The position numbers and the translations under genes are program-made. A stretch of DNA of 37,495 bases from an uncultured Actinomycetota bacterium (lineage in GTDB: Bacteria; Actinomycetota; Humimicrobiia; Humimicrobiales; Humimicrobiaceae), in contig CAZGTW010000006.1 in the NCBI GenBank assembly GCA_964528815.1, forward strand, positions 1 through 37,495, in the 5' to 3' direction. Below, in pieces: positions 23,926-37,495 of the stretch (position 1 is its first letter; every line of letters begins with the position of its first letter). The notes below the pieces were generated by a model, which saw only the letters and a list, made by a program, of their open reading frames with translations, made no database searches and was not told the DNA's origin.

Positions 23926-25425
23926 ATGCTTTTTAAACAGGAACACATTGGAATAATTGACCTTGGCACAACTTCAGTCAGGTTTATTATTTTTGACACA
24001 GATTTTAATATTTGCTGTTCCAGGTCAAAACAGGTAAAACAGCTCTACCCGAAACCCGGCTGGGTAAATGAGGATCCGGATGAAATCTGGGATGCAACGA
24101 TACAGGTAATATCATCATGCCTCAAAGAATCAGTTCCAGGGCAATTAATCGGTATAGGCATTTGCAACCAGAGGGAATCCACAATGGTCTGGGACAAAAA
24201 AACCGGAGAAGCCCTGTCGGAACTTATTGTGTGGCAGGACCGCCGCACAGCCGGGAGGTGTGCAGAACTTAAAAATAAAATAGACCCCGCTATGATAAAT
24301 AAAAAAACGGGGCTTCTGCTTGACCCCTATTTTTCAGCAACAAAACTTGAATGGATATTGTCAACAAGACCCGAACTTAAAAAAAGAAGTACCCTTGCTT
24401 TTGGCACACTTGATTCCTGGATAATATTTAAACTTACAGGTCAGCATAAGACAGATATATCCAATGCAAGCAGGACCATGTTATTTAATATAAATGATTT
24501 TAAATGGGACGGGGAGCTGCTGGATATTTTTGGAGTCAGCAGCAATATTTTACCCCGGGTACACAACAATTACGGAAACGGGATTTTCGGCCATACTTAC
24601 AGTGATTCAGTTTTCGGGCGAAGCGTACCAGTATGTGCAGTTTTTGGCGACCAGCAGTCGGCCCTTTTTGGCCAGATGTGTTTTAATGAGGGTGACAGCA
24701 AGTCAACTTTCGGGACCGGAAGTTTTCTTATGATGAACACCGGCAGAAATAAAGTCGAAAGCAAAAATAATCTTCTTGCCACTGTCTTTTACCAGGATGA
24801 TTCCGGAAAAGTGTATTATGCGCTTGAAGGTTCCACATATAATTCCGGAAGCATATTCCAGTGGTTAAAGGAAGAGCTGGGACTTATAAAAGACTACAGC
24901 GAGATTGAAAAATTTGCACAGCAAACAGGATTCCAGGAGACACTTTTTATTGTTCCCGGTTTTACCGGGTTGGGTGCGCCTTTCTGGGACCCCTATGCAA
25001 GGGGCCTTATTATTGGAATTGAAAGATCCACAGGTAAAAGCCAGATAATAAGGGCCGCCCTTGAAGCAGCCGCTTACAGCACAATGGATGTAATGAGCGC
25101 AATGAAGCTTGACACAGGAATGGATTTTAATTTTTTAAAAATCGATGGCGGCCTTTCACGCAATAAAGTTTTTAGCAGGATACTCTCAGATATTACCGGG
25201 ACAAAGGTTATAAGGTTTTCAATGGAAGAGCTGACCTCACTTGGGGCATGTTTTGGCGCCGCACTTGGCCTGGGTCTTGTAAAAAATCCTGCTGAGTTAA
25301 AAGATAATAGAAAGGAAGAATCCTTCCTGCCGGGCATCGATAAAGAATTCCGAAGCAGGCTTTACAGCAACTGGACAATGGCAGTACAAAAATCAAGAAA
25401 CTGGATATGGGATTTAAAAAAATAA
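23926..25425 (+). CDS. glpK: Glycerol kinase GlpK
   Basis: FGGY kinase with GIIDLGTTSVRF, GIGICNQRESTMVWDKKTGE..LIVWQDRRTA, DPYFSATKLEWIL and GDQQSALFGQMCF. Confidence 0.94.
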   Translation: MLFKQEHIGIIDLGTTSVRFIIFDTDFNICCSRSKQVKQLYPKPGWVNEDPDEIWDATIQVISSCLKESVPGQLIGIGICNQRESTMVWDKKTGEALSELIVWQDRRTAGRCAELKNKIDPAMINKKTGLLLDPYFSATKLEWILSTRPELKKRSTLAFGTLDSWIIFKLTGQHKTDISNASRTMLFNINDFKWDGELLDIFGVSSNILPRVHNNYGNGIFGHTYSDSVFGRSVPVCAVFGDQQSALFGQMCFNEGDSKSTFGTGSFLMMNTGRNKVESKNNLLATVFYQDDSGKVYYALEGSTYNSGSIFQWLKEELGLIKDYSEIEKFAQQTGFQETLFIVPGFTGLGAPFWDPYARGLIIGIERSTGKSQIIRAALEAAAYSTMDVMSAMKLDTGMDFNFLKIDGGLSRNKVFSRILSDITGTKVIRFSMEELTSLGACFGAALGLGLVKNPAELKDNRKEESFLPGIDKEFRSRLYSNWTMAVQKSRNWIWDLKK

Positions 25426-26879
25426 AAACACAGATTGCTGTAATCGGGGCAGGCATAGCAGGCTGTGCAATTGCAAGAGAGCTTTGCAGGTATAAACTTG
25501 AAACAGCAGTAATTGAAAAAGAAGCTGATGTCTCCTGGGGAACCACTAAAGCAAACAGCGGGCACATACATCCCGGTTATGCAGGGCCTGCAGGCACACT
25601 CAGGCTCTCGACCTGCAGGAAGGGACAGCTGCTGTTTTTAAAAAATTCAGAAGAACTTTCTATCCCGGTGAAGTGGATAGGCTCTCTCCTTCATATTTTC
25701 CGGACCGAAGAATTAAACGAACTTAACCACCTGCTCAAGCAGGGCAAAGACAATGGCGTGCCGGGCCTTGAAATCATTACTGACAGAAAACGCATAAAAA
25801 AACTTGAACCAAACATTTCTGAAAATGTAATTGCATCATTATACTGCAGGGAACACTATATCTGCTCACCTTATGAGGCAGCAATTGCAATATTTGAAAA
25901 CGCAAAAACAAACGGGGCAACTTTTATATTTGACACAAAAGTAACCGGCATTGAATATGACAGGACGCAAAAAACCTTCCTTATAAGTGCAGTGGATTAT
26001 TTCGGCAGTAAAAAGTCAATAGAATCGGAATATATTGTAAACGCAGCAGGTGTTTATGCTGATGATATAGCAAGGCTTGCAGGGGACCACTCTTTTTCAA
26101 TAAAGGCAATAAAGGGGCAGTATTACCTGCTTGACCCTGATGTAAAAAACCTTGTTAACCATCTGAACATAAGGGTTGCAGACAAGACAAATGCCAGGTC
26201 AAAAGGTATGTATGTAGGGCGCACATATCACGGAAATGCAATTTTCGGGTCAAATTATGAAGTCACAGATAAAAATGATCTGACAACATCGAAAAAATCC
26301 CTTGACGAGATAAAAGAAAAACTTTCAGATATGGTCGACAGAATCCCTTATGACAAAGTAATCACAACATTTGCAGGCCTGAGGGCATATGCAGACACAG
26401 GAGACTTTGTCCTGGGGCCCTCACCGGCAAACCGCAAGTTTATCAATGCTGCCGGCATACAATCGCCGGGCCTTACATGTGCGTTTCTTATAGCAGAACT
26501 GACAGCTCAGGCATTAAAAGATGAGGGCCTTAAATTAAGGCCCGATCCGGCATACATACCTGAAAGAAAAAAAACTGAATCACTAAATAAGGATGACTTC
26601 AGCAATAATAATGTCCTTTATAAAAAAGACAACTTCTTTGGCCGGATTGTGTGCCGATGTGAAAAGGTAACAGAAGCCGAAATTATAGAAGCAATAAAAA
26701 ATGGGGCGACAACAGTCGATGGCGTCAAGTTCAGGACAAGGGCCGGAATGGGCAGGTGCCAGGGAGGATACTGCATGCTCAGGGTTGTTAAAATACTGGC
26801 AAGGGAGCTTAAAATCCCGGAAGAAAATGTCACTAAATCCGGCGGGGATTCTTATATTACAAAATACAGGATGGATTGA
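25407..26879 (+). CDS. FAD-dependent glycerol-3-phosphate dehydrogenase-like oxidoreductase with BFD-like [2Fe-2S] domain
   Basis: N-terminal IAVIGAGIAGCAIAREL...KANSGHIH, and C-terminal CRCEKVTEAEIIEAIKNGATTVDGVKFRTRAGMGRCQGGYC. It overlaps the glpK 3' end by 19 nt. Confidence 0.88.
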   Translation: MGFKKIKTQIAVIGAGIAGCAIARELCRYKLETAVIEKEADVSWGTTKANSGHIHPGYAGPAGTLRLSTCRKGQLLFLKNSEELSIPVKWIGSLLHIFRTEELNELNHLLKQGKDNGVPGLEIITDRKRIKKLEPNISENVIASLYCREHYICSPYEAAIAIFENAKTNGATFIFDTKVTGIEYDRTQKTFLISAVDYFGSKKSIESEYIVNAAGVYADDIARLAGDHSFSIKAIKGQYYLLDPDVKNLVNHLNIRVADKTNARSKGMYVGRTYHGNAIFGSNYEVTDKNDLTTSKKSLDEIKEKLSDMVDRIPYDKVITTFAGLRAYADTGDFVLGPSPANRKFINAAGIQSPGLTCAFLIAELTAQALKDEGLKLRPDPAYIPERKKTESLNKDDFSNNNVLYKKDNFFGRIVCRCEKVTEAEIIEAIKNGATTVDGVKFRTRAGMGRCQGGYCMLRVVKILARELKIPEENVTKSGGDSYITKYRMD

Positions 26880-26880
26880 T

Positions 26881-28209
26881 TTGCAGCAAAGCGAAAAAAT
26901 ATACAATATAACAATAATCGGTGCGGGTCCGGCGGGCCTTGCGGCAGCCTGCAGATGCGCGGAGCTGCAGGTAGAAGACGTACTTCTTATCGAAAGGGAC
27001 TCTTACACGGGAGGAATTCTGCCCCAATGCATTCATGGGGGTTTCGGGCTGAAGATATTTAACACTGAACTCACAGGACCCCAGTATTGCCAGATTTTTA
27101 CAGACAAGCTTGAAAAAACGGATGTTTGCTTAAAGCTTGATACAATGGCGCTCAGTATTGAAAGCAGATGCGGCCTGCCCTATAAAGAGGTAATCATTGC
27201 AAGCAGGCAGGATGGTTTCCAGTCAATAAAAACCCGAACATTAATACTTGCCCTTGGCTGCAGGGAAAGGACAAGGGGCCAGGTAATGATACCGGGCTCC
27301 AGGCCAGCCGGAGTTTATACAGCGGGCCTTGTGCAGCGCATGGTAAATATAGAAGGGTTTCTTCCGGGCAGGGAAATCGTAATACTTGGCTCAGGCGACA
27401 TAGGCCTTATTATGGCAAGGCGCCTTTCACTTGAGGGCTGCAAAGTAAAGGGCGTATTTGAGCTGATGCCCTTTTCTACGGGGCTTTTGCGGAACATCTC
27501 ACAATGCCTTGAAGATTTTAATATAGAACTGCACCTTAGCCACACAGTTACAAATATATATGGTGATAAAAGGCTCGAAGCCATTGAGGTATGCAGGGTA
27601 GATGAGGGACTTAAGCCAATCCGCTCCAGCGCAAGGAAAATAAAATGCGACACCCTTCTGCTTTCAGTCGGGCTTATTCCTGAAAACGAGCTATCAAAGA
27701 CATGCGGCATTGACATGGACCCTTATACAGGCGGCCCGAAAGTGGATGAAAACCTGCAGACATCACAGGAGGGCATTTTTTCCTGCGGAAATTCACTTTT
27801 TGTATATGACCTTGTAGACAATGTGACAATAGATGCATATATGGCCGCCGAAAATGCTGTATCATATATTTCAGTAAACCGGAATAAAAGCAATATAAGC
27901 GCTGCCGGCCCGGTGCCCGCAGAAGTAGCATGTGTTGAAATCATTCCCGGTGAAAATGTCTTGCATGTTGTGCCGCAGCTTATAAAAAGTGCAAGAGATA
28001 CAGTTTTTAATATAAGAGCCAGAATACCATTGCGAAACGCTGTCCTTGAATTTTCACCTGGCAGTTTTTCAAAAAGAATACAATATGTAAATCCTGGAGA
28101 AATGATTATTGCAAAGCTTACAAAGCAGCAAATAGAAGAAATAATTGCCGAAAATCTAAATTCAAAAGAGCCCGTAAAAGTAAGCCTGAAAAGAGGAGGG
28201 CTTTCCTGA
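26881..28209 (+). CDS. FAD/NAD(P)-binding pyridine-nucleotide-disulfide-type oxidoreductase
   Basis: ITIIGAGPAGLAAACR lies close to the proposed TTG start at 26881, which is the second base after the upstream TGA (26877-26879). A second dinucleotide fold is IVILGSGDIGLIMARRL. The track start at 26701 would overlap the previous gene by 179 nt. Confidence 0.85.
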   Translation: MQQSEKIYNITIIGAGPAGLAAACRCAELQVEDVLLIERDSYTGGILPQCIHGGFGLKIFNTELTGPQYCQIFTDKLEKTDVCLKLDTMALSIESRCGLPYKEVIIASRQDGFQSIKTRTLILALGCRERTRGQVMIPGSRPAGVYTAGLVQRMVNIEGFLPGREIVILGSGDIGLIMARRLSLEGCKVKGVFELMPFSTGLLRNISQCLEDFNIELHLSHTVTNIYGDKRLEAIEVCRVDEGLKPIRSSARKIKCDTLLLSVGLIPENELSKTCGIDMDPYTGGPKVDENLQTSQEGIFSCGNSLFVYDLVDNVTIDAYMAAENAVSYISVNRNKSNISAAGPVPAEVACVEIIPGENVLHVVPQLIKSARDTVFNIRARIPLRNAVLEFSPGSFSKRIQYVNPGEMIIAKLTKQQIEEIIAENLNSKEPVKVSLKRGGLS

Positions 28210-28583
28210 TGGCCAACGTAAAAAGAAAAATGAGATGCATAGTTTGTCCGGAGGGATGCAGCCTGCTTGTTGAATATGATAAAAATACCGGCCGGCCCAT
28301 AATGATAGAGGGCCACAAATGTAAAAGAGGCATTAAATTTGCAGAAGACGAAATAAAAAATCCATTAAGGACCCTGACTACAACTGTCAGGATTTCCTCA
28401 AAGAAAGCCGCAAGGCTTGCCGTGAGGAGCAGCATACCTGTCGGCCGGGATAAGATGCTGCAAATAATAAAGCATGTAAGGCAAATTGAAATAAAGGCGC
28501 CTGTGAATATGGGTGATATAATAATCCATGATGTGCTTGGAACTGGCGCTGATATAATATCCTGCTCTTCAATAAAGGAATAG
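28209..28583 (+). CDS. DUF1667 domain protein (small Cys-containing partner of the two oxidoreductases)
   Basis: CIVCPEGCSLLVEYD...GHKCKRG..FAEDEIKNPLRTLTTTVRI...APVNMGDIIIHDVLGTGADII. The start overlaps the upstream stop (TGATG). Confidence 0.85.
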   Translation: MANVKRKMRCIVCPEGCSLLVEYDKNTGRPIMIEGHKCKRGIKFAEDEIKNPLRTLTTTVRISSKKAARLAVRSSIPVGRDKMLQIIKHVRQIEIKAPVNMGDIIIHDVLGTGADIISCSSIKE

Positions 28584-30920: not shown

Positions 30921-32063
30921 ATGAAAATAAGAACCGGATTAATTACGATTTGTATTTTAATACTATCTGCAGCCAGCCTTTCGCTGCAGGGATGCTGCAT
31001 CCGGACAGGCTTTGACTTTTTAACCAGGGACAGCAATTCCAATACAGGCAATTTCCCTGATTCCGCAACCAGCCCGGAAACCGGAAGCCTTAAAGAAACA
31101 GCAATTGAAGATACCTCAGCAACTGTTACTGGAAGTGATGGACCTGAAGATACAGCAGATACTTCAGACACTTCTGGTACACAAACCGGGCAGGAAACCG
31201 GGCAAAGCAATGGCAGAAGCGCAAATATTACAATATCTTATTTCTTTGACATCCAGGGCAGCACAAACAGGATAGAATTCATAACTGTCATACCTGATGA
31301 CTACCATTTGCGGCAGGATGTAAGAGAAATAAGATTCAGCATCGAGCCATCTGAGATTTACACTTCAAACTATACAAAGTACGCAAAATTCTTATTTACC
31401 GGGCCGGCAAATGACTTTACGCTGGATATAAATATTGAAATGGAAATATTTGATTATGACCTCGAAAATGCAATTGCTGCAGCAGCGGAAGGAAGTGCCC
31501 CGGCACTGAGCAGCCAGGACCATTTAAAATACAGCTCAGGTGAAAAAAATATAGATACCGGCGACCCTTCAATAGTCAGTGCGGCAGAAAAACTCAATGA
31601 AACTGACCAGTTAAAGCTTACCAGGCAGATATATGATTTTGTGCTTGAAAACCTGTATTACCAGGGGTATAACCCTGGCGACTGCGGAGCTGCAGGAGCG
31701 CTTGCAAAAAGCGGAGGGGACTGTACCGAATACGCAGACCTTTTTGTGACACTTTGCAGGGTAAAGGGAATACCTGCCAGAGTGATCGAAGGCTATACAG
31801 CAGATGCGCCGCCTTCTGAAATGCCGATGGGCCATAACTGGAGCGAAGCATATATTAAAGGCATAGGATGGGTGCCTTTTGACTGTATATTTGATGATAA
31901 TAATGGAGACTCGGCAGAAACAACCTTTTATAACCTAAAAGATGTTTACATCTACAACAGCTTTGTAAGAAACGACCCTGCAATGTTTGGTTATCATTAT
32001 TTTGCCTATTATTATTACGGTGATGAAATAAGTGTTGAAAAATCTGTAACAATAAATTCCTGA
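30921..32063 (+). CDS. Transglutaminase-like (Cys-His-Asp) lipoprotein
   Basis: Signal peptide with lipobox SLQGC and a T/S/G/D/E-rich linker. The core is GGDCTEYADLFVTLCRVKGIPARVIEGY...GHNWSEAYIKGIGWVPFDC. Confidence 0.85.
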   Translation: MKIRTGLITICILILSAASLSLQGCCIRTGFDFLTRDSNSNTGNFPDSATSPETGSLKETAIEDTSATVTGSDGPEDTADTSDTSGTQTGQETGQSNGRSANITISYFFDIQGSTNRIEFITVIPDDYHLRQDVREIRFSIEPSEIYTSNYTKYAKFLFTGPANDFTLDINIEMEIFDYDLENAIAAAAEGSAPALSSQDHLKYSSGEKNIDTGDPSIVSAAEKLNETDQLKLTRQIYDFVLENLYYQGYNPGDCGAAGALAKSGGDCTEYADLFVTLCRVKGIPARVIEGYTADAPPSEMPMGHNWSEAYIKGIGWVPFDCIFDDNNGDSAETTFYNLKDVYIYNSFVRNDPAMFGYHYFAYYYYGDEISVEKSVTINS

Positions 32064-32103: not shown

Positions 32104-33276
32104 ATGGAAGAAAAAATAAAAATTAAGCCTCCTGCAAATTCTCTGTTATTTAAAATATATGACGCTGCAGGCATGCAGAGATGGAACGACCAGATACGCG
32201 CGATTGAAATGACAGAGCTGGACAAGCAGGCGCACAAGATGATAACAGCTTATGTCATGGGAAAAATACAGCAGGAACAGCAAGGCGAAAAATTAAACTG
32301 GATAGATATCATAGAATACGGGCTGTTTGAATTTCTGCAGAGGATAATACTTACAGACTTAAAGCCGCCACTGTTTTATGAGATTATGCAGGACAGGGAA
32401 AAATACAATAAGCTTAACCAGTGGGTTTTTGACAAAATTTATCCGGACATAGAAAGCCTGGGGAGCAGTTTTTGCAAAAATTTCAGCAAATATATAACCG
32501 GCGGTGCGGATTTTGATGGAAATTACACAGATGTAAGCAGGGCAATACTTGGAGCGGCACATTTCTATGTAACTAAATGGGAGTTCAAATTAATAGAAAA
32601 ATTCAACCCTGGTGGATACCAGGTTGAAGAAATAAGAAAAAACATAGACAGCCAGCAGGAAAAGTACTGCAGCCTGCCCGGGGTGAAAAAATTCCTTGAG
32701 AGCCAGGAACTGATGGCATTTATAGATATTTGCGGCCAGCTTCGTTTCCAGTTAAGGTGGAGCCATCTTTACCGTGTTCCCAAAACATCTGTTCTTGGGC
32801 ACATGCTTGTTGTTGCTGTTTTTTCATACCTGTTTTCCTATGTGCTGGGTTTTGACAGTGAGAGGATGATAAATAACTACTTTACGGGGCTTTTCCATGA
32901 TTTGCCCGAGGTACTTACCAGAGATATCATAAACCCTGTTAAAAAATCTGTAGAGGGCCTTGACGAACTTATTAAAGATTATGAAAAAAGCGAGATGGAA
33001 AAAAAGATATACAAGCTGCTTCCGGTAAAATGGCACAATGACATCAGGATGTTTACAGAATCCGAGTTTGAAGATATAAAAGCAAGAGACGGCAAACTCG
33101 TAAAAGCCGCCGATGACCTTGCGGCATTCATTGAGGCATACCTTTCCATAAAAAACGGCATAAAAAATGATAACCTTCTGGGTGCAATGGAAAACCTGAG
33201 GCGCAAGTATAAGGATGTACAAATCTGTGGCCTTGATTTTAACACTATATATAAAGATTTCCCGAAGGCGTTTTAA
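32104..33276 (+). CDS. Tandem pseudo-HD / HD domain protein; C-terminal half YfbR-like 5'-(deoxy)nucleotidase
   Basis: The C-terminal half carries RWSHLYRVPKTSVLGHMLVVAVFSY, LFHDLPEVLTRDIINPVK and VKAADDLAAFIEAY. These parallel E. coli YfbR RW...NVSEHSLQVA, YHDASEVLTGDLPTPVK and VKQADALCAYL. The N-terminal half repeats the pattern with HD replaced by EF (RWNDQIRAIEMTELDKQAHKMITAY; LFEFLQRIILTDLKPP; GAAHFYVTKWE). Confidence 0.8.
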   Translation: MEEKIKIKPPANSLLFKIYDAAGMQRWNDQIRAIEMTELDKQAHKMITAYVMGKIQQEQQGEKLNWIDIIEYGLFEFLQRIILTDLKPPLFYEIMQDREKYNKLNQWVFDKIYPDIESLGSSFCKNFSKYITGGADFDGNYTDVSRAILGAAHFYVTKWEFKLIEKFNPGGYQVEEIRKNIDSQQEKYCSLPGVKKFLESQELMAFIDICGQLRFQLRWSHLYRVPKTSVLGHMLVVAVFSYLFSYVLGFDSERMINNYFTGLFHDLPEVLTRDIINPVKKSVEGLDELIKDYEKSEMEKKIYKLLPVKWHNDIRMFTESEFEDIKARDGKLVKAADDLAAFIEAYLSIKNGIKNDNLLGAMENLRRKYKDVQICGLDFNTIYKDFPKAF

Positions 33277-33310
33277 GGAGATAAAATAAACCTGTAATTA
33301 ATTTTCACTT

Positions 33311-34939
33311 ATGTCAGACAAAAGACTCATCAGTAAATCAGCCTACCTTATTTACAGGCAATGCCCGAAATATTTCTGGTATTATATAAATGACAGGAAA
33401 AGTATTCCTGAGCATGACCAGAGGGCAAAATTCAACTTTAAAATAGGTCATATTACAGGCAAACTTGCAAAACTGTACCACAGCGATGGTATCGAAGCAG
33501 ACTGTAATGGAAGCATTGAAGAAAACCTTCAAAGGACAAAACAACTCCTTGGTTTGGGCAGGCCTGTTTTTGAGGCGGGCTTTCTTGCGGAAGCAGGCAA
33601 AACTTCGGGCGGGGCACCATTAAATATTTATGCAAGAGCCGACATACTGGTTCCCGTAGACGGTACCAGAGCCTGGGATATAATAGAAGTCAAAAGCTCA
33701 ACAGGAGTAAAGGCTATAAACCTGTCAGATGTTGCGTTCCAGAAATACTGCTACATGCAGGCAGGCCTTGATATCAGGAATTGTTATGTAATGCATATTA
33801 ACAGCAGTTATGTGATGAACGGCAGACTTGACCCTTATGGTATATTCCGGTTCACAGATGTGACTGAAGAAGCGGATAAAATAATGCCTCATATTAAAAA
33901 TGATTTAAAGCAGATGGCTCTTGTCATGGCAAGTGAACGGGCCCCATCAACAGGTGTCGGCAAATACTGTGACAGCCCGTTTAATTGTCCGCTTAAAACT
34001 GTATGCTGGGAAAATGTAAGCGACAGCAGTATTTTTTATCTTTACTCGCTTACAAAAAAAACTGCCAGGCGCATGGCTGAATGCGGCATCGGGCATATAT
34101 ATGAAATACCTGAAAGTTTTCCCGGGATAAACCCCAAACAAAGAATCCAGATAGAATGCGTTAAAAAATCACAGAGCTGGACAGACAGGGCTGCAATAAA
34201 AGAATTTATCAAAGGAATCGAATACCCGCTCTATTTTCTGGATTTTGAGACTTTTGCATCACCTTTTCCGCTTATTGAAGGAACCAGGCCCTACCAGGCG
34301 ATACCTTTCCAGTTTTCTCTCCATATTGTTGAGACCCCGGAAAGCGTGCCCCGGCACCATTCTTTTCTTGCTGACGGAAAAAGTGATCCAAGGCAAAAAC
34401 TCTCAGAAGCTCTGATGAAAAAATTCGGCTTTGTCCCGGGCGATGACGGGAGGTCCTTTAAAGGAAGCCTTATTGTGTATAATGAATCAGTTGAAAGATC
34501 CATATTAAAGGACCTGGCAGCATTTGACCCAGGCAATGAAGGATGGATATTCAGGATATCAGGCAGGATAATTGACCTTTTTGATCCTTTTAAGAATTTC
34601 TATTTCTATAGTGTTTTGCAAAAAGGAAGTGCGTCAGTAAAAAAGGTGCTTCCTGCACTTACTGAAAAAAGCTATTCGGAAATGGCAATTACAAATGGCG
34701 ATATTGCCAGTATAACATTTCTTTCGGGCTCTACCCTTTGGAAAGATTTCATTTATGAAAATAACCTTGGAACCATTAACGGCAAATCTGAAACTGATTT
34801 AAAAGCTTGCGGTAATATGAAAGATGAGATGCTCATGCAACAGACAAGAGAAAACCTTGAACAATATTGCAGGCTTGATACTGAAGGGATGTATCATATA
34901 CTTGAAAAACTAAAAGAGATTGTCCGCATTTGCACTTAG
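33311..34939 (+). CDS. DUF2779-type protein: Cas4/RecB-like PD-(D/E)XK nuclease with 4-Cys cluster fused to DEDDy-type 3'-5' exonuclease-like domain
   Basis: N-terminal domain: Cys in YRQCPKYFW; D (ARADILV); D-x2-E-x-K (WDIIEVKSS); QxxxY (FQKYCY); and C-x5-C-x5-C (YCDSPFNCPLKTVCW). C-terminal domain: YFLDFETF (ExoI), VYNESVERSILKDL (ExoII-like), and QYCRLDTEGM (Y-x3-D, ExoIII). Confidence 0.8.
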   Translation: MSDKRLISKSAYLIYRQCPKYFWYYINDRKSIPEHDQRAKFNFKIGHITGKLAKLYHSDGIEADCNGSIEENLQRTKQLLGLGRPVFEAGFLAEAGKTSGGAPLNIYARADILVPVDGTRAWDIIEVKSSTGVKAINLSDVAFQKYCYMQAGLDIRNCYVMHINSSYVMNGRLDPYGIFRFTDVTEEADKIMPHIKNDLKQMALVMASERAPSTGVGKYCDSPFNCPLKTVCWENVSDSSIFYLYSLTKKTARRMAECGIGHIYEIPESFPGINPKQRIQIECVKKSQSWTDRAAIKEFIKGIEYPLYFLDFETFASPFPLIEGTRPYQAIPFQFSLHIVETPESVPRHHSFLADGKSDPRQKLSEALMKKFGFVPGDDGRSFKGSLIVYNESVERSILKDLAAFDPGNEGWIFRISGRIIDLFDPFKNFYFYSVLQKGSASVKKVLPALTEKSYSEMAITNGDIASITFLSGSTLWKDFIYENNLGTINGKSETDLKACGNMKDEMLMQQTRENLEQYCRLDTEGMYHILEKLKEIVRICT

Positions 34940-35011
34940 AATATTTAGGGATTTTATGCTATATTATTTTCTTTATTTAAAAACGGGCAAGTTTTATGCT
35001 TGGAGGAACAA

Positions 35012-35449
35012 ATGGCGAAGCAATGTATTGAATGCGGTAAGGAAATAAAGGAAGAAACAGACTCTTCTTATTGTGCCAAATGTGATGAGATGCTTGATAA
35101 GAAGTTCGAAGCAATTGAGGACAATATAATTGTTTACAAGGAGCTTATGGAAAATGAAGTTGTTGTCCTTAATAAATTTGAAAAAGAGGATATTGTAGAG
35201 ATGTATGGCAGGGTATACGATAAATTCAGGGAAGAAGGGGAATTTACCGAGGACCAGGCAAGAGTAATGAACCAGATAATAAACACATTCGGGCTCACCT
35301 CTTCAGATGTCGGAAAAGATAAAATCATAGAATACAAAGAAGGCACACACGCAAAAAAAATAGACAAGGATAAATGCCCTAACTGCGGAAAAGACATAAA
35401 AGAAGATTTTAATCTTTGCCCGTACTGCGGCTACAGACTGAAATTATAA
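35012..35449 (+). CDS. Double zinc-ribbon protein (hypothetical)
   Basis: N-terminal CIECGKEIKEETDSSYCAKC and C-terminal CPNCGKDIKEDFNLCPYCG flank an acidic helical core. The ATG at 35012 lies 5 nt after GGAGG (35002-35006); the track's TTG at 35000 overlaps that SD. Confidence 0.7.
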   Translation: MAKQCIECGKEIKEETDSSYCAKCDEMLDKKFEAIEDNIIVYKELMENEVVVLNKFEKEDIVEMYGRVYDKFREEGEFTEDQARVMNQIINTFGLTSSDVGKDKIIEYKEGTHAKKIDKDKCPNCGKDIKEDFNLCPYCGYRLKL

Positions 35450-35498: not shown

Positions 35499-37495
35499 AT
35501 GTTAAAAAAAATACTATTGGCATGCACCGGTCTTGCTGCAGCATTTATTATATTACTCTCCCAGGTTTCGTGCTGTTTTTCATTTGACTTTGGTCAATCC
35601 GGCATAACATCAGGAGGGGAAGAGTGGGAAGAAAGCAATGCACAGGACACCGAAACTGAAACTGCTGAAACCACAGCAGAAGAATCGACGCTGCTTGAAA
35701 AACCCGAGCCATATTTAATTTCGAAATTAAAAATCCCCGGCCAGGCAATTGACGTAAAATCACAGGGCGGATTTGCTTACCTTACTAACGACCTGGGTAT
35801 TTTATTTGTAATTGATGTAAAAGATAAAGAAAACCCTTCTATAACCGGCAAGTGCAGTGGAATAAATGCTGCAAACATAGTAATGATACAGGGTGACTAT
35901 GCTTACATATCATACACTGACTGGCAGAGCCCCCAGGATGAGACAGGGGAAACCAGCAAAGGCCAGCAGTCAGGCATTACAGAGATATATTCGATTTGCG
36001 GTTTTAAAATCATAGATATAAGAGATAAGAAAAACCCTGTTATTGCCGGTGATTATATTTCAGGTTCAACGGGCAAAAAATCAGTACAGGGCCTTGTAAT
36101 ACAGGGTGATTATGCATACCTTAACTCTACCAGGCTATTTGATGATTACTCAGAGAGCGCACTTGAAATCATTGATATAAGCGACAAGTCAAACCCGGTT
36201 CTTAAGGGCCAGTGCAGCATCGAGGGGCAGCCAAACGGCCTTTTTATCTCCGGCAACTATGCCTTCCTTAACAACACTTACTATGATTACCTGGCAATGG
36301 ACTATACAGGCCAAAGCAGGTTTTTTACAGTGGACATTACAGACAAGGAAAAACCATTTGTTGCAGGCTCATGTAAAGTACCGGCAAATTCATGGTCAGT
36401 ATTTTTAAAAGGCGGAGCAGCTTACCTTTCAAGCAGCAAATATGATGAAGAAAACCAGGAATATACAGACAGCCTGCTGCAGATTGTTGACATTTCAGAT
36501 CCGTTAAAACCTTTTGCTGCGGGCAGCTGCAGCATTGCAGGCGGAGCATGGGAGATTGACATGAAAGATGATTTTCTTTTTGTCTCAAATAATGAAGGGG
36601 GCATTGCAGTAGTAGATACAAGCGATATTGCAAAACCAAAAGTCGTAACTCAACTTAACACCGGCGGAAATTCATATGATATTGCCATAAGCGGTGATTA
36701 TGGCTATATAGCAGACGGATTCCAGGGGCTTGCAATAATCGGCCTGCAGAAAAAAGAACCAGGGGAGGGCCTTATTGTGGAAGATACTGCAGAAGGCGCC
36801 AACAGGGCACCTGTCGCAGAAATTGAAGTATTTGGAGATAAAACAAAGGGCGGAGACTTTATAAGCTATAACCCGGTTTTTTTTTCAGCTATTGACTCAT
36901 ATGATCCTGAAGGCAATAAGCTGACATACTCCTGGGAGATAGACGGCACAAAACTTATAGAAAATAATAGCGGGCAGAGTTTTATAACAGGACTGACAGA
37001 TTTAACCGGGAAGCAGTTTGCAATTTCCGAAAAGGGCGATGAAGCTGCTATAAGTTTTAGCCGGTCCGGGAGCTACATTGTAAAAGTATATGTATCAGAC
37101 GGGGATAATGAAGCTTCAGACGAGGTCCTTATCCAGGTAAAAGAAGAAAATACTTTGATGGAGCCCTTAAAGGAACATAATTTTGATGTCAGGATAGAAT
37201 GCACTCTTATAAACAACAGCAACCTTACACTAAAAGAACTCGAGTGTTATTTGCGGACCCCTCTTACATATTCTCCCTGGCAGACAATAAATAAAATCAC
37301 AGCAAGCGTTGCCGATACGGATCAGCTCTTTGATGATTCCTGGAACATGCTGACACATTTAAAATTCAACAAATCCTTAAAAGTCGAAAGCGGCAAAAAA
37401 ATATCAGCAAACATTGTCAGTAATGTATCAATGTATGAATATAATATCAGGAAATTATCCACGGAAAACCTTGATTATGAAAGTAATGACGAGGA
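35499..37495 (+). CDS. Large secreted/lipoprotein with LVIVD-type beta-propeller repeats, a PKD-like domain and the start of a transglutaminase-N-like module; runs off window end
   Basis: I checked that the frame from the ATG at 35499 stays open to the window end (665 codons). The signal peptide is MLKKILLACTGLAAAFIILLSQVSCC. Repeats of the form GDYAYISY, GDYAYLNS, GNYAFLNN, DDFLFVSNNEGGIAVVDTSD and GDYGYIADGFQGLAIIGL are present. The PKD-like segment is APVAEIEVFGD...SAIDSYDPEGNKLTYSWEIDG...YIVKVYVSDGDNEASD. Confidence 0.8.
   Translation, partial: MLKKILLACTGLAAAFIILLSQVSCCFSFDFGQSGITSGGEEWEESNAQDTETETAETTAEESTLLEKPEPYLISKLKIPGQAIDVKSQGGFAYLTNDLGILFVIDVKDKENPSITGKCSGINAANIVMIQGDYAYISYTDWQSPQDETGETSKGQQSGITEIYSICGFKIIDIRDKKNPVIAGDYISGSTGKKSVQGLVIQGDYAYLNSTRLFDDYSESALEIIDISDKSNPVLKGQCSIEGQPNGLFISGNYAFLNNTYYDYLAMDYTGQSRFFTVDITDKEKPFVAGSCKVPANSWSVFLKGGAAYLSSSKYDEENQEYTDSLLQIVDISDPLKPFAAGSCSIAGGAWEIDMKDDFLFVSNNEGGIAVVDTSDIAKPKVVTQLNTGGNSYDIAISGDYGYIADGFQGLAIIGLQKKEPGEGLIVEDTAEGANRAPVAEIEVFGDKTKGGDFISYNPVFFSAIDSYDPEGNKLTYSWEIDGTKLIENNSGQSFITGLTDLTGKQFAISEKGDEAAISFSRSGSYIVKVYVSDGDNEASDEVLIQVKEENTLMEPLKEHNFDVRIECTLINNSNLTLKELECYLRTPLTYSPWQTINKITASVADTDQLFDDSWNMLTHLKFNKSLKVESGKKISANIVSNVSMYEYNIRKLSTENLDYESNDE

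Follow-up and report, generated by a model that had tools for sequence, protein, structure and literature searches.

A conserved tandem HD phosphohydrolase and DUF2779 nuclease gene pair in Humimicrobiia that looks more like a DNA-recycling unit than a new anti-phage system

The stretch of DNA analysed here, hereafter the window, comprises 37,495 nucleotides (nt) from an uncultured Actinomycetota bacterium of the family Humimicrobiaceae (contig CAZGTW010000006.1 of assembly GCA_964528815.1). Towards its end lie three genes, which we call g1, g2 and g3, encoding a tandem YfbR-like HD phosphohydrolase, a DUF2779 dual nuclease and a small protein with two zinc ribbons, respectively (Table 1). A preliminary description, made from the sequence alone, had presented them as a candidate nucleic-acid-targeting module of three same-strand genes separated by 34 nt (g1 to g2) and 72 nt (g2 to g3) and bracketed by transglutaminase-like proteins. 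The coordinates of the open reading frames (ORFs) confirm this layout, both flanks carry transglutaminase-core domains, and the proposed domain content (a YfbR-like HD enzyme, a DUF2779 protein combining Cas4-like and DEDDy nucleases, and two zinc ribbons) is borne out by Pfam, Foldseek and the conserved residues. Nevertheless, the conserved unit at this locus is the g1-g2 pair, an operon by its order, strand, short spacing and changing flanks, which is restricted to the class Humimicrobiia, and g3 lies outside of it. In this lineage, the pair looks more like a unit for DNA disposal and recycling than a new anti-phage system.

Table 1. Features of the g1-g2 locus and its immediate flanks, in window coordinates.
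Feature	Position	Strand	Description	Basis
Upstream flank	30921..32063	+	380-aa transglutaminase-core protein with N-terminal signal-like segment; ends 40 nt before g1	
g1	32104..33276	+	390 aa; tandem YfbR-like HD phosphohydrolase; first gene of the conserved pair	ORF; Pfam HD_3 and YfbR-like
g1 N-half	32104..32703	+	Residues 1-200; divergent, probably non-catalytic YfbR-like domain	Invariant motifs; sub-threshold profile matches
g1 C-half	32704..33273	+	Residues 201-390; catalytic YfbR-type HD domain	Alignment to YfbR 2paq and OxsA 5tk6
g1-g2 spacer	33277..33310		34 nt; no terminator-like site	
g2	33311..34939	+	542 aa; DUF2779 dual nuclease; second gene of the conserved pair	ORF; PF11074
g2 N-terminal domain	33311..34030	+	Cas4/AddB-like PD-(D/E)XK domain with four-cysteine cluster	Foldseek; PADLOC Cas4; conserved residues
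g2 C-terminal domain	34208..34936	+	DEDDy 3'-5' exonuclease-like domain	Pfam DUF2779; invariant residues; Foldseek
g3	35012..35449	+	145 aa; zinc ribbon at either end; clade-specific neighbour	Pfam zinc-ribbon families
Downstream flank	35499..37495	+	LVIVD/PKD/transglutaminase-core surface protein, 871 aa when complete; leaves the window end	

The survey of g1 used one genome per GTDB species and retrieved 169 relatives, from which 80 loci were fetched. Among the Humimicrobiia loci with enough downstream DNA, g2 lies next to g1 on the same strand in 37 of 47, and the gap between the two genes is below 200 nt in 30 of these 37 and typically 18-35 nt, as in the homologous spacer of the window. 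The paired loci cover at least the families Hydromicrobiaceae and Calidifonticultoraceae, plus loci titled Humimicrobiaceae or Humimicrobiales, and the identity between clades is about 60% for g1 and about 40% for g2. The pair stays intact while its flanks vary between the Humimicrobiia subclades: the upstream neighbours include transglutaminase, aldo-keto reductase and GNAT genes, among others, and the downstream ones an ABC-2 transporter, g3, a spermine-synthase-like protein, PIN and nitroreductase genes. In the Hydromicrobium-type loci, the pair follows an upstream spacer of 180-460 nt and is bracketed by genes on the opposite strand, GNAT upstream and an ABC-2 transporter downstream; this opposite-strand bracketing indicates that the pair is a discrete bicistronic unit. 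In a neighbour-joining (NJ) tree, the DUF2779 proteins linked to g1 fall in clades apart from the unlinked ones, which is consistent with vertical descent of the linked proteins, and we also considered multiple independent origins of the pairing, of which this tree shows no sign.

Five loci (L035, L061, L067, L068 and L078) carry a 190-aa single-domain HD gene (PF01966) between g1 and g2 (e.g., L061:1222-1794), so that in these genomes two different HD enzymes are encoded ahead of the nuclease.

The C-terminal half of g1 (residues 206-370) is matched by the Pfam families HD_3 (2e-28, 99.8 bits for a cut-off of 22.5) and YfbR-like (1.4e-24, 87.2 bits for a cut-off of 25.9), and the closest solved relatives of the protein by sequence are OxsA and YfbR. 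The AlphaFold2 model of g1, with a predicted local distance difference test (pLDDT) score of 84 and a predicted template modelling (pTM) score of 0.89, retrieves YfbR, OxsA, Lin2634 and DatZ in Foldseek with a probability of 1.0 and template modelling (TM) scores of 0.65-0.71 normalised to the target. In the alignment, R218-W219, H233, H265-D266, E269, D274 and D337 of g1 correspond to R18-W19, H33, H68-D69, E72, D77 and D137 of YfbR, in which H33, H68, D69 and D137 are metal ligands, E72 is catalytic, and R18, W19 and D77 confer deoxyribose specificity (PMC8177086). All these g1 residues are invariant in the alignment of 25 homologues; in the window, the codon of H233 lies at 32800, those of H265-D266 at 32896-32901 and that of D337 at 33112. 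Against the NCBIfam equivalog model of YfbR (NF003009), g1 scores 54.7 bits, under the cut-off of 122, and is therefore a relative rather than an orthologue of YfbR.

The N-terminal half of g1 is more conserved than the C-terminal half, with the motifs MQRWNDQ, ELDKQAHKM, LTDLKPPL and AAHFY. It retains R26-W27, H44 and D85, and a manual motif alignment places E76-F77 and R80 at the positions of the H-D and E of the C-half. Its profile matches are sub-threshold, in register for Pfam YfbR-like (E=0.012) and nearly full length for Lin2634 in the PDB (3mzo, E=0.054), and the AlphaFold2 model repeats a helix/hairpin/helix pattern in both halves. Direct comparisons of the two halves were negative, as hhalign found no similarity (probability 0.5%) and 165 of 500 shuffles reached the observed Smith-Waterman score. 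The preliminary description had called g1 pseudo-dimeric. The YfbR-type active site of the C-half is complete, and the sub-threshold matches make it plausible that g1 is an internal pseudo-dimer whose N-half is a second, degenerate YfbR-like domain, but the sequence comparison of the halves does not recover such a copy, and the case for it is suggestive rather than significant.

The family defined by the N-half contains about 360 representatives at 50% clustering, mostly proteins of 380-450 aa in which this half is N-terminal. The 169 relatives of g1 in the GTDB species genomes are 55-81% identical across phyla, and the 80 fetched loci include Actinomycetota, Omnitrophota and Planctomycetia. 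The g1 family is thus slowly evolving and broadly conserved, unlike typical defence genes. To our knowledge, no previous study has dealt with the tandem HD protein. In many Omnitrophota and Planctomycetia loci (L015, L028-L030, L034, L040, L057, L063 and others), the tandem HD gene lies 12-15 nt after a cluster of MarR, TolC-like and AcrB-type RND (resistance-nodulation-division) efflux genes, and it is followed by a gene for a small 111-aa protein and often also by one for a 101-aa cysteine-rich protein. A Natranaerobius plasmid also carries a full-length relative, as does the Helicobacter chromosome, where the gene (36% identity) adjoins Fic and RpoN at the boundary of a prophage.

A phage origin of g1 was considered and rejected. 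No g1 homologue was found in 2.9 M viral contigs, and the strong match to phrog_30941 (E=4e-79) traces to Helicobacter pylori 'phage' records, in which the gene belongs to the host flank. Two of these records (PQ159899 and PQ159901; loci L181 and L183) contain full-length tandem HD homologues of 35-37% identity annotated inside the phage genomes; they lie outside the integrase and beside Fic, RpoN, LptB and TsaE, and are therefore host flank. The phrog_30941 family itself may derive from such host-boundary genes.

The second gene, g2, is a typical DUF2779 protein whose architecture has already been published. PF11074 (DUF2779) matches residues 308-442 over its full profile (positions 1-126; 5e-34, 117.7 bits for a cut-off of 23.3), and the AlphaFold2 model has a pLDDT of 89 and a pTM of 0.85. 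The N-terminal domain contains the cysteine cluster C18/C220/C226/C232 and the PD-(D/E)XK residues D111 and E126-x-K128, which are invariant or nearly so in 30 homologues; in the same alignment, the DEDDy residues D311, E313, D422, Y519 and D523 of the C-terminal domain are invariant. Foldseek relates the model to Cas4 (8d3l, 1.6e-4), the Cas4 protein SSO0001 (4ic1), AddB (4cej) and RecB nuclease domains, as well as to 3'hExo (1zbu) and a DinG entry (9kqh). The PADLOC model of Cas4 matches residues 6-234 (E=1.2e-4), and the Pfam search returned no Cas_Cas4 match for g2. DUF2779 belongs to the 3'-5' exonuclease clade of the RNase H-like proteins and is fused to a PD-(D/E)XK domain, DUF83 (Majorek et al., 2014; PMC3985635), and an analysis of JCVI-syn3.0 (2026; PMC13621843) described the quasi-essential MMSYN1_0389 as a Cas4-like plus DEDDy protein of uncharacterised function. 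In Mycoplasma bovis, a transposon mutant of the DUF2779 gene is growth-deficient in cell culture (PMC7373297).

The gene layout, the folds, the conservation of the catalytic residues, the adjacency across the lineage and the genomic context are shown by the data above, and from them we infer the activities, the substrates and the coupling of the two proteins as follows. g2 would act as a stand-alone nuclease with two predicted active sites, in which the Cas4/AddB-like Fe-S PD-(D/E)XK domain is expected to process single-stranded DNA in the 5'→3' direction or endonucleolytically and the DEDDy domain in the 3'→5' direction, so that the two domains could jointly break down free DNA ends of either polarity into deoxynucleoside monophosphates (dNMPs). 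Because its C-half carries every metal-binding and deoxyribose-recognising residue of YfbR, g1 is expected to convert dNMPs to deoxynucleosides and phosphate, and possibly also to act on deoxynucleoside di- and triphosphates (dNDPs and dNTPs), like OxsA. The N-half has lost the metal site and retains the residues for sugar binding (Arg-Trp and Asp), and it may serve in regulation or in holding the substrate. As a net effect, the pair would clear linear, damaged or foreign DNA and recycle or sanitise the nucleotides. Our tentative preference, held with slightly less than even confidence, is therefore that g1-g2 is an operon of two genes, passed on by vertical inheritance, whose products break DNA ends down to dNMPs and then remove the phosphate. 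Besides the adjacency and the catalytic residues, this reading draws on the slow evolution and broad distribution of g1, on the metabolic and transport neighbours of the pair, and on the quasi-essential DUF2779 gene of JCVI-syn3.0 and the growth-deficient M. bovis mutant. The preliminary description had mentioned such a housekeeping route, from exonuclease to dNMP and from nucleotidase to nucleoside, beside its defence reading, and on the sequence evidence this route appears to be the better fit. It had also cautioned that the link between the genes was drawn from adjacency only, which was appropriate.

Several observations weigh against this preference. As g1 falls below the cut-off of the YfbR equivalog model, its substrate may differ. 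The co-occurrence of the gene families, which the preliminary description had left to be surveyed in other genomes, holds for g1 and g2 in most Humimicrobiia loci and does not extend to g3 or beyond the class: 10 of the 47 Humimicrobiia loci have no g2 beside g1, and the pair was found in none of the 30 g1-carrying loci from Omnitrophota, Planctomycetia/Scalindua and loci labelled as Methanosarcinales. Conversely, in a g2-centred sample of 80 metagenome loci, seeded from non-actinobacterial DUF2779, g1 is present in five, all Hydromicrobium-like, while the other DUF2779 genes of this sample stand alone with no recurrent partner. Moreover, a wider block (nucleobase permease, transglutaminase, hydrolase and GNAT genes) is loosely syntenic in the lineage, and some of the g1-g2 adjacency may therefore be inherited gene order.

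In a different explanation, g1 is a general housekeeping phosphatase of the nucleotide pool, g2 is an independent nuclease of DNA repair or turnover, and an ancestral arrangement has simply remained unbroken in Humimicrobiia without any coupling. In its favour, none of the non-actinobacterial loci examined has g2 with g1, which lies beside RND efflux genes in Omnitrophota and Planctomycetia and beside Fic and RpoN in Helicobacter, the relatives of g2 stand alone among heterogeneous neighbours, the synteny extends around the pair, and the separation of linked and unlinked DUF2779 in the tree allows a single origin of the linkage. However, the pair has outlasted repeated turnover of both flanks, its very short spacing, order and strand are kept across family-level divergence, at which g2 retains only about 40% identity, and the gene inserted between g1 and g2 in five loci is another HD-domain gene. 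We consider inherited synteny without coupling possible but rather unlikely.

The other counterweight comes from the neighbourhoods of DUF2779 genes that are not linked to g1. In 75 diverse metagenome loci, stand-alone DUF2779 genes have 124 immediate neighbours, among which GmrSD_N (5) and N6_Mtase (3) lead, followed by N6_N4_Mtase, GmrSD_C, Eco57I and MTES_1575 (2 each) and BrxL (1), and these neighbours match 328 PADLOC models, versus 21, mostly generic ABC ATPase cross-matches, for the neighbours of the Humimicrobiia pair used as a control. Two other DUF2779 homologues have a WYL gene (beside P0231) and a type III restriction-modification system (beside P0184) next to them, and g2-like genes occur on 32 plasmids. 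The presence of stand-alone DUF2779 beside restriction-modification, GmrSD, WYL, Qat and dGTPase genes makes a defence-related role of the nuclease family possible, and this island setting fits defence at least as well as housekeeping.

Individual plasmid and metagenome loci illustrate these neighbourhoods. On three Aliarcobacter/Arcobacter megaplasmids (NZ_MK715471, NZ_CP032824 and CP134847; loci L176, L178 and L180), DUF2779 lies in a clear defence island, with SbcC/AAA ATPases upstream and, on pACRY43158, also a Qat system (QatC and TatD). Downstream, a dGTPase gene (dgt) is separated from DUF2779 by one or two large genes, AAA or hypothetical; the DUF2779...dgt arrangement is retained in the three plasmid variants. 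In three unrelated contexts, a WYL regulator lies directly beside DUF2779 (the A. butzleri plasmid p63, L177; a Rhodoferax plasmid, L179; a metagenome locus, L086), accompanied by PD-(D/E)XK nuclease, OLD-type endonuclease, PLD-like, DEAD-helicase and HicA genes. In Humimicrobiia, the site directly downstream of DUF2779 resembles an insertion hot spot: a gene for an AAA_14-DUF4143 protein (PADLOC candidate PDC-S01, E ~1e-100) is located just after g2 twice (L002:3050-4405 and L068:13193-14482), and PIN and MazE genes are located just after DUF2779 in two further loci (L027:9549-9950 and L048:10039-10332).

The defence reading of the preliminary description, restricted to g1 and g2, would make the pair an undescribed defence module, in which the nuclease destroys invading or restriction-cut DNA and the HD enzyme withdraws the released or pooled deoxynucleotides from reuse by the phage. 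The neighbours rich in GmrSD, methyltransferase and BrxL genes, with their excess of PADLOC models, the megaplasmids on which DUF2779 lies between Qat/ATPase genes and dGTPase, itself an HD-superfamily dNTPase, the WYL genes after DUF2779 in nuclease, PLD and helicase clusters of the A. butzleri and Rhodoferax plasmids, the WYL and type III restriction-modification genes next to P0231 and P0184, and the gains of PDC-S01 (twice) and of PIN or MazE just downstream of g2 in Humimicrobiia all speak for it, as does a weak match of g1 to the PHROG of a phage dATP triphosphohydrolase. Nevertheless, an island neighbourhood is no proof that DUF2779 is an effector, and the pair itself gives a different picture. 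Across Humimicrobiia, 104 genes lie no more than two positions from the pair; GNAT, ABC-2/ABC transporter, hydrolase, transglutaminase and aldo-keto reductase genes are the most frequent, and no restriction-modification or GmrSD gene is among them. The pair occupies a stable position among metabolic and transport genes instead of a variable island, with an identical layout on four contigs from four samples. PADLOC-DB v2 returned no match for g1, a weak match to Cas4 alone for g2 and one spurious Cas3fv match (5e-3) for g3, with no system matched, in agreement with the preliminary description, which had recognised no named defence system. The window contains no repeats of the CRISPR type, nor any Rfam CRISPR-DR match, and no cas genes were found among the neighbours of the locus. 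In viral data, g1 was absent from the 2.9 M contigs scanned, while g2 occurred in two of them and in no GenBank phage record. Together with the slow evolution and broad conservation of g1, these observations make a g1-g2 defence module unlikely.

The defence-island setting to which the preliminary description had pointed is therefore seen for stand-alone DUF2779 in other lineages, whereas this locus and the Humimicrobiia pair have a stable, non-mobile and non-defence chromosomal context and are not a defence island. A more general proposal, that DUF2779 proteins are widespread, unrecognised 'clean-up' exonucleases of defence and that the Humimicrobiia pair is a fixed two-gene module against phages and plasmids, seems to us quite improbable. 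If true, DUF2779 would finish DNA cut by restriction, GmrSD and other effectors, in a role like that of RecBCD/AddAB, and in Humimicrobiia the nuclease would be hard-wired to the tandem HD phosphatase, so that the DNA of the invader would be taken down to nucleosides.

Finally, a role in end processing during DNA repair can be considered, in which g2 would resect or trim damaged ends and g1 would sanitise the damaged or non-canonical dNMPs that are released. WYL regulators control DNA-damage responses in other bacteria, and they adjoin DUF2779 in other lineages. In structure, g2 resembles the nuclease domains of AddB and RecB, a type described as processing ends in repair, and the mSphere analysis of JCVI-syn3.0 matched the C-terminal domain of DUF2779 to MrfB, a DEDDh nuclease of mitomycin repair (PMC13621843). 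The M. bovis screen that yielded the DUF2779 mutant also yielded NrnA (a nanoRNase), GdpP (a c-di-AMP phosphodiesterase) and replication and repair genes (PMC7373297). On the other hand, no LexA-like box was found upstream of g1 in 79 loci, no repair genes adjoin the pair in Humimicrobiia, and sequence data cannot separate repair from the degradation and dephosphorylation of DNA ends that we favour. A dedicated repair function is thus very unlikely in our view.

Regarding the third gene, the trio that the preliminary description had treated as one module is not a unit. g3 was found in 10 of the 80 g1 loci, all from the closest clade. In two loci (L004 and L070), it directly follows g1 without g2, and in two others (L002 and L003) an extra gene separates it from g2. 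In all seven loci with enough DNA, the large transglutaminase/LVIVD gene comes close behind g3, at a distance of -25 to 59 nt. Homologues of g3 (about 50% identity) in Hydromicrobium-type genomes (L091-L095) lie on other contigs than the pair and consistently precede a MatE efflux gene or two; in the metagenome-assembled genome (MAG) CAZRML01, for instance, contig 36 carries g1-g2, whereas the homologue of g3 lies on contig 5 beside MatE genes. Two candidate links were rejected. An apparent fusion of g3 with the transglutaminase/LVIVD gene (L004:2387-5131), which would have been a Rosetta-stone case, joins two ORFs across an N/X run and is therefore an artefact of assembly or masking, and the gene between g2 and g3 in L002 (c73), considered as a link to MatE, encodes the AAA_14-DUF4143 protein instead. 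The MAG CAYNMO01 (L008 and L009) carries two divergent g1-g2-g3 copies on different contigs, which may be a true duplication or a strain-mixed bin. In the window, the ATG of g3 is preceded by GGAGG, and an alternative in-frame TTG is located at 35000.

The surroundings of the locus do not delimit the trio either, as the co-directional run begins at 30921 and extends beyond the window end, with no strand switch. The downstream LVIVD/PKD/transglutaminase gene starts 50 nt past g3 and is visible as a complete gene in the related locus L081. A promoter and terminator scan of the window gave matches at or below the expectation from shuffled sequences and found no terminator-like hairpins between the genes of the locus, and an Rfam scan of the window and seven related loci found no family. 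Surface proteins, glycerol kinase, GlpA-like dehydrogenases, an M29 peptidase, an α/β hydrolase and an H+-pyrophosphatase are encoded in the neighbourhood of the locus. Upstream, on the plus strand (window 23926-28583), is a cluster for glycerol utilisation with genes for an FGGY kinase, a DAO/GlpA-like dehydrogenase, a Pyr_redox_2 protein and DUF1667. A HicA/HicB toxin-antitoxin pair, the sole toxin-antitoxin or defence-like element near the locus, is located outside the window, about 3.6 kb past g3 and downstream of the transglutaminase/LVIVD gene (L081:11056-11524).

In the papers and libraries consulted, we found no account of a lineage-wide operon of DUF2779 with a tandem HD phosphatase, of the tandem HD family as an object of study, or of the contrast between stand-alone DUF2779 in defence islands and a pair in the core genome. 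DUF2779 is a large, widespread and biochemically uncharacterised family, quasi-essential in JCVI-syn3.0, and an operon partner of predictable dNMP phosphatase activity leads to a testable hypothesis about its product and pathway. The N-half of g1, strictly conserved yet catalytically degenerate, is a target for structure-function work, and the contrast between neighbourhoods is relevant to the question of whether solo Cas4-like nucleases serve in defence or in housekeeping. Both proteins come from known families, and the locus is a useful functional lead rather than an exceptional find.

Among known systems, Escherichia coli YfbR (PF12917/PF13023) and its relatives OxsA, Lin2634, DatZ and HDDC2 are closest to g1, whose C-half adopts the YfbR fold and has the H...HD...D metal ligands, the catalytic Glu and the Arg-Trp/Asp deoxyribose residues. 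YfbR is a homodimer, whereas g1 is twice as long and is predicted to form an intramolecular pseudo-dimer whose N-half would lack the HD metal site. g2 is a full-length member of the DUF2779/PF11074 family (MMSYN1_0389, Mbov_0804, the UU173 family, RNase H-like family F.17) with the published architecture; the mycoplasma protein retains two of the cluster cysteines, whereas g2 has all four. Within the loci surveyed here, an operon of DUF2779 with an HD phosphatase was seen in Humimicrobiia and not outside. With Cas4 and solo-Cas4 proteins, g2 shares the PD-(D/E)XK core and the Fe-S cysteine cluster, 8d3l and 4ic1 being its best structural matches, but it is fused to a DEDDy exonuclease that canonical Cas4 lacks and has no cas1, cas2 or CRISPR array nearby. 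With dNTP-depleting defence enzymes (dGTPase/Dgt, dCTP deaminase) and the nuclease-plus-HD logic of defence islands, the pair has in common an HD-superfamily nucleotide hydrolase encoded near a nuclease, and the dGTPase gene of the Arcobacter plasmids lies in a defence island, one or two genes downstream of DUF2779. In contrast, Dgt and SAMHD1 belong to the triphosphohydrolase branch of the superfamily and g1 to the YfbR monophosphatase branch, without a PADLOC match and at a locus that is no defence island.

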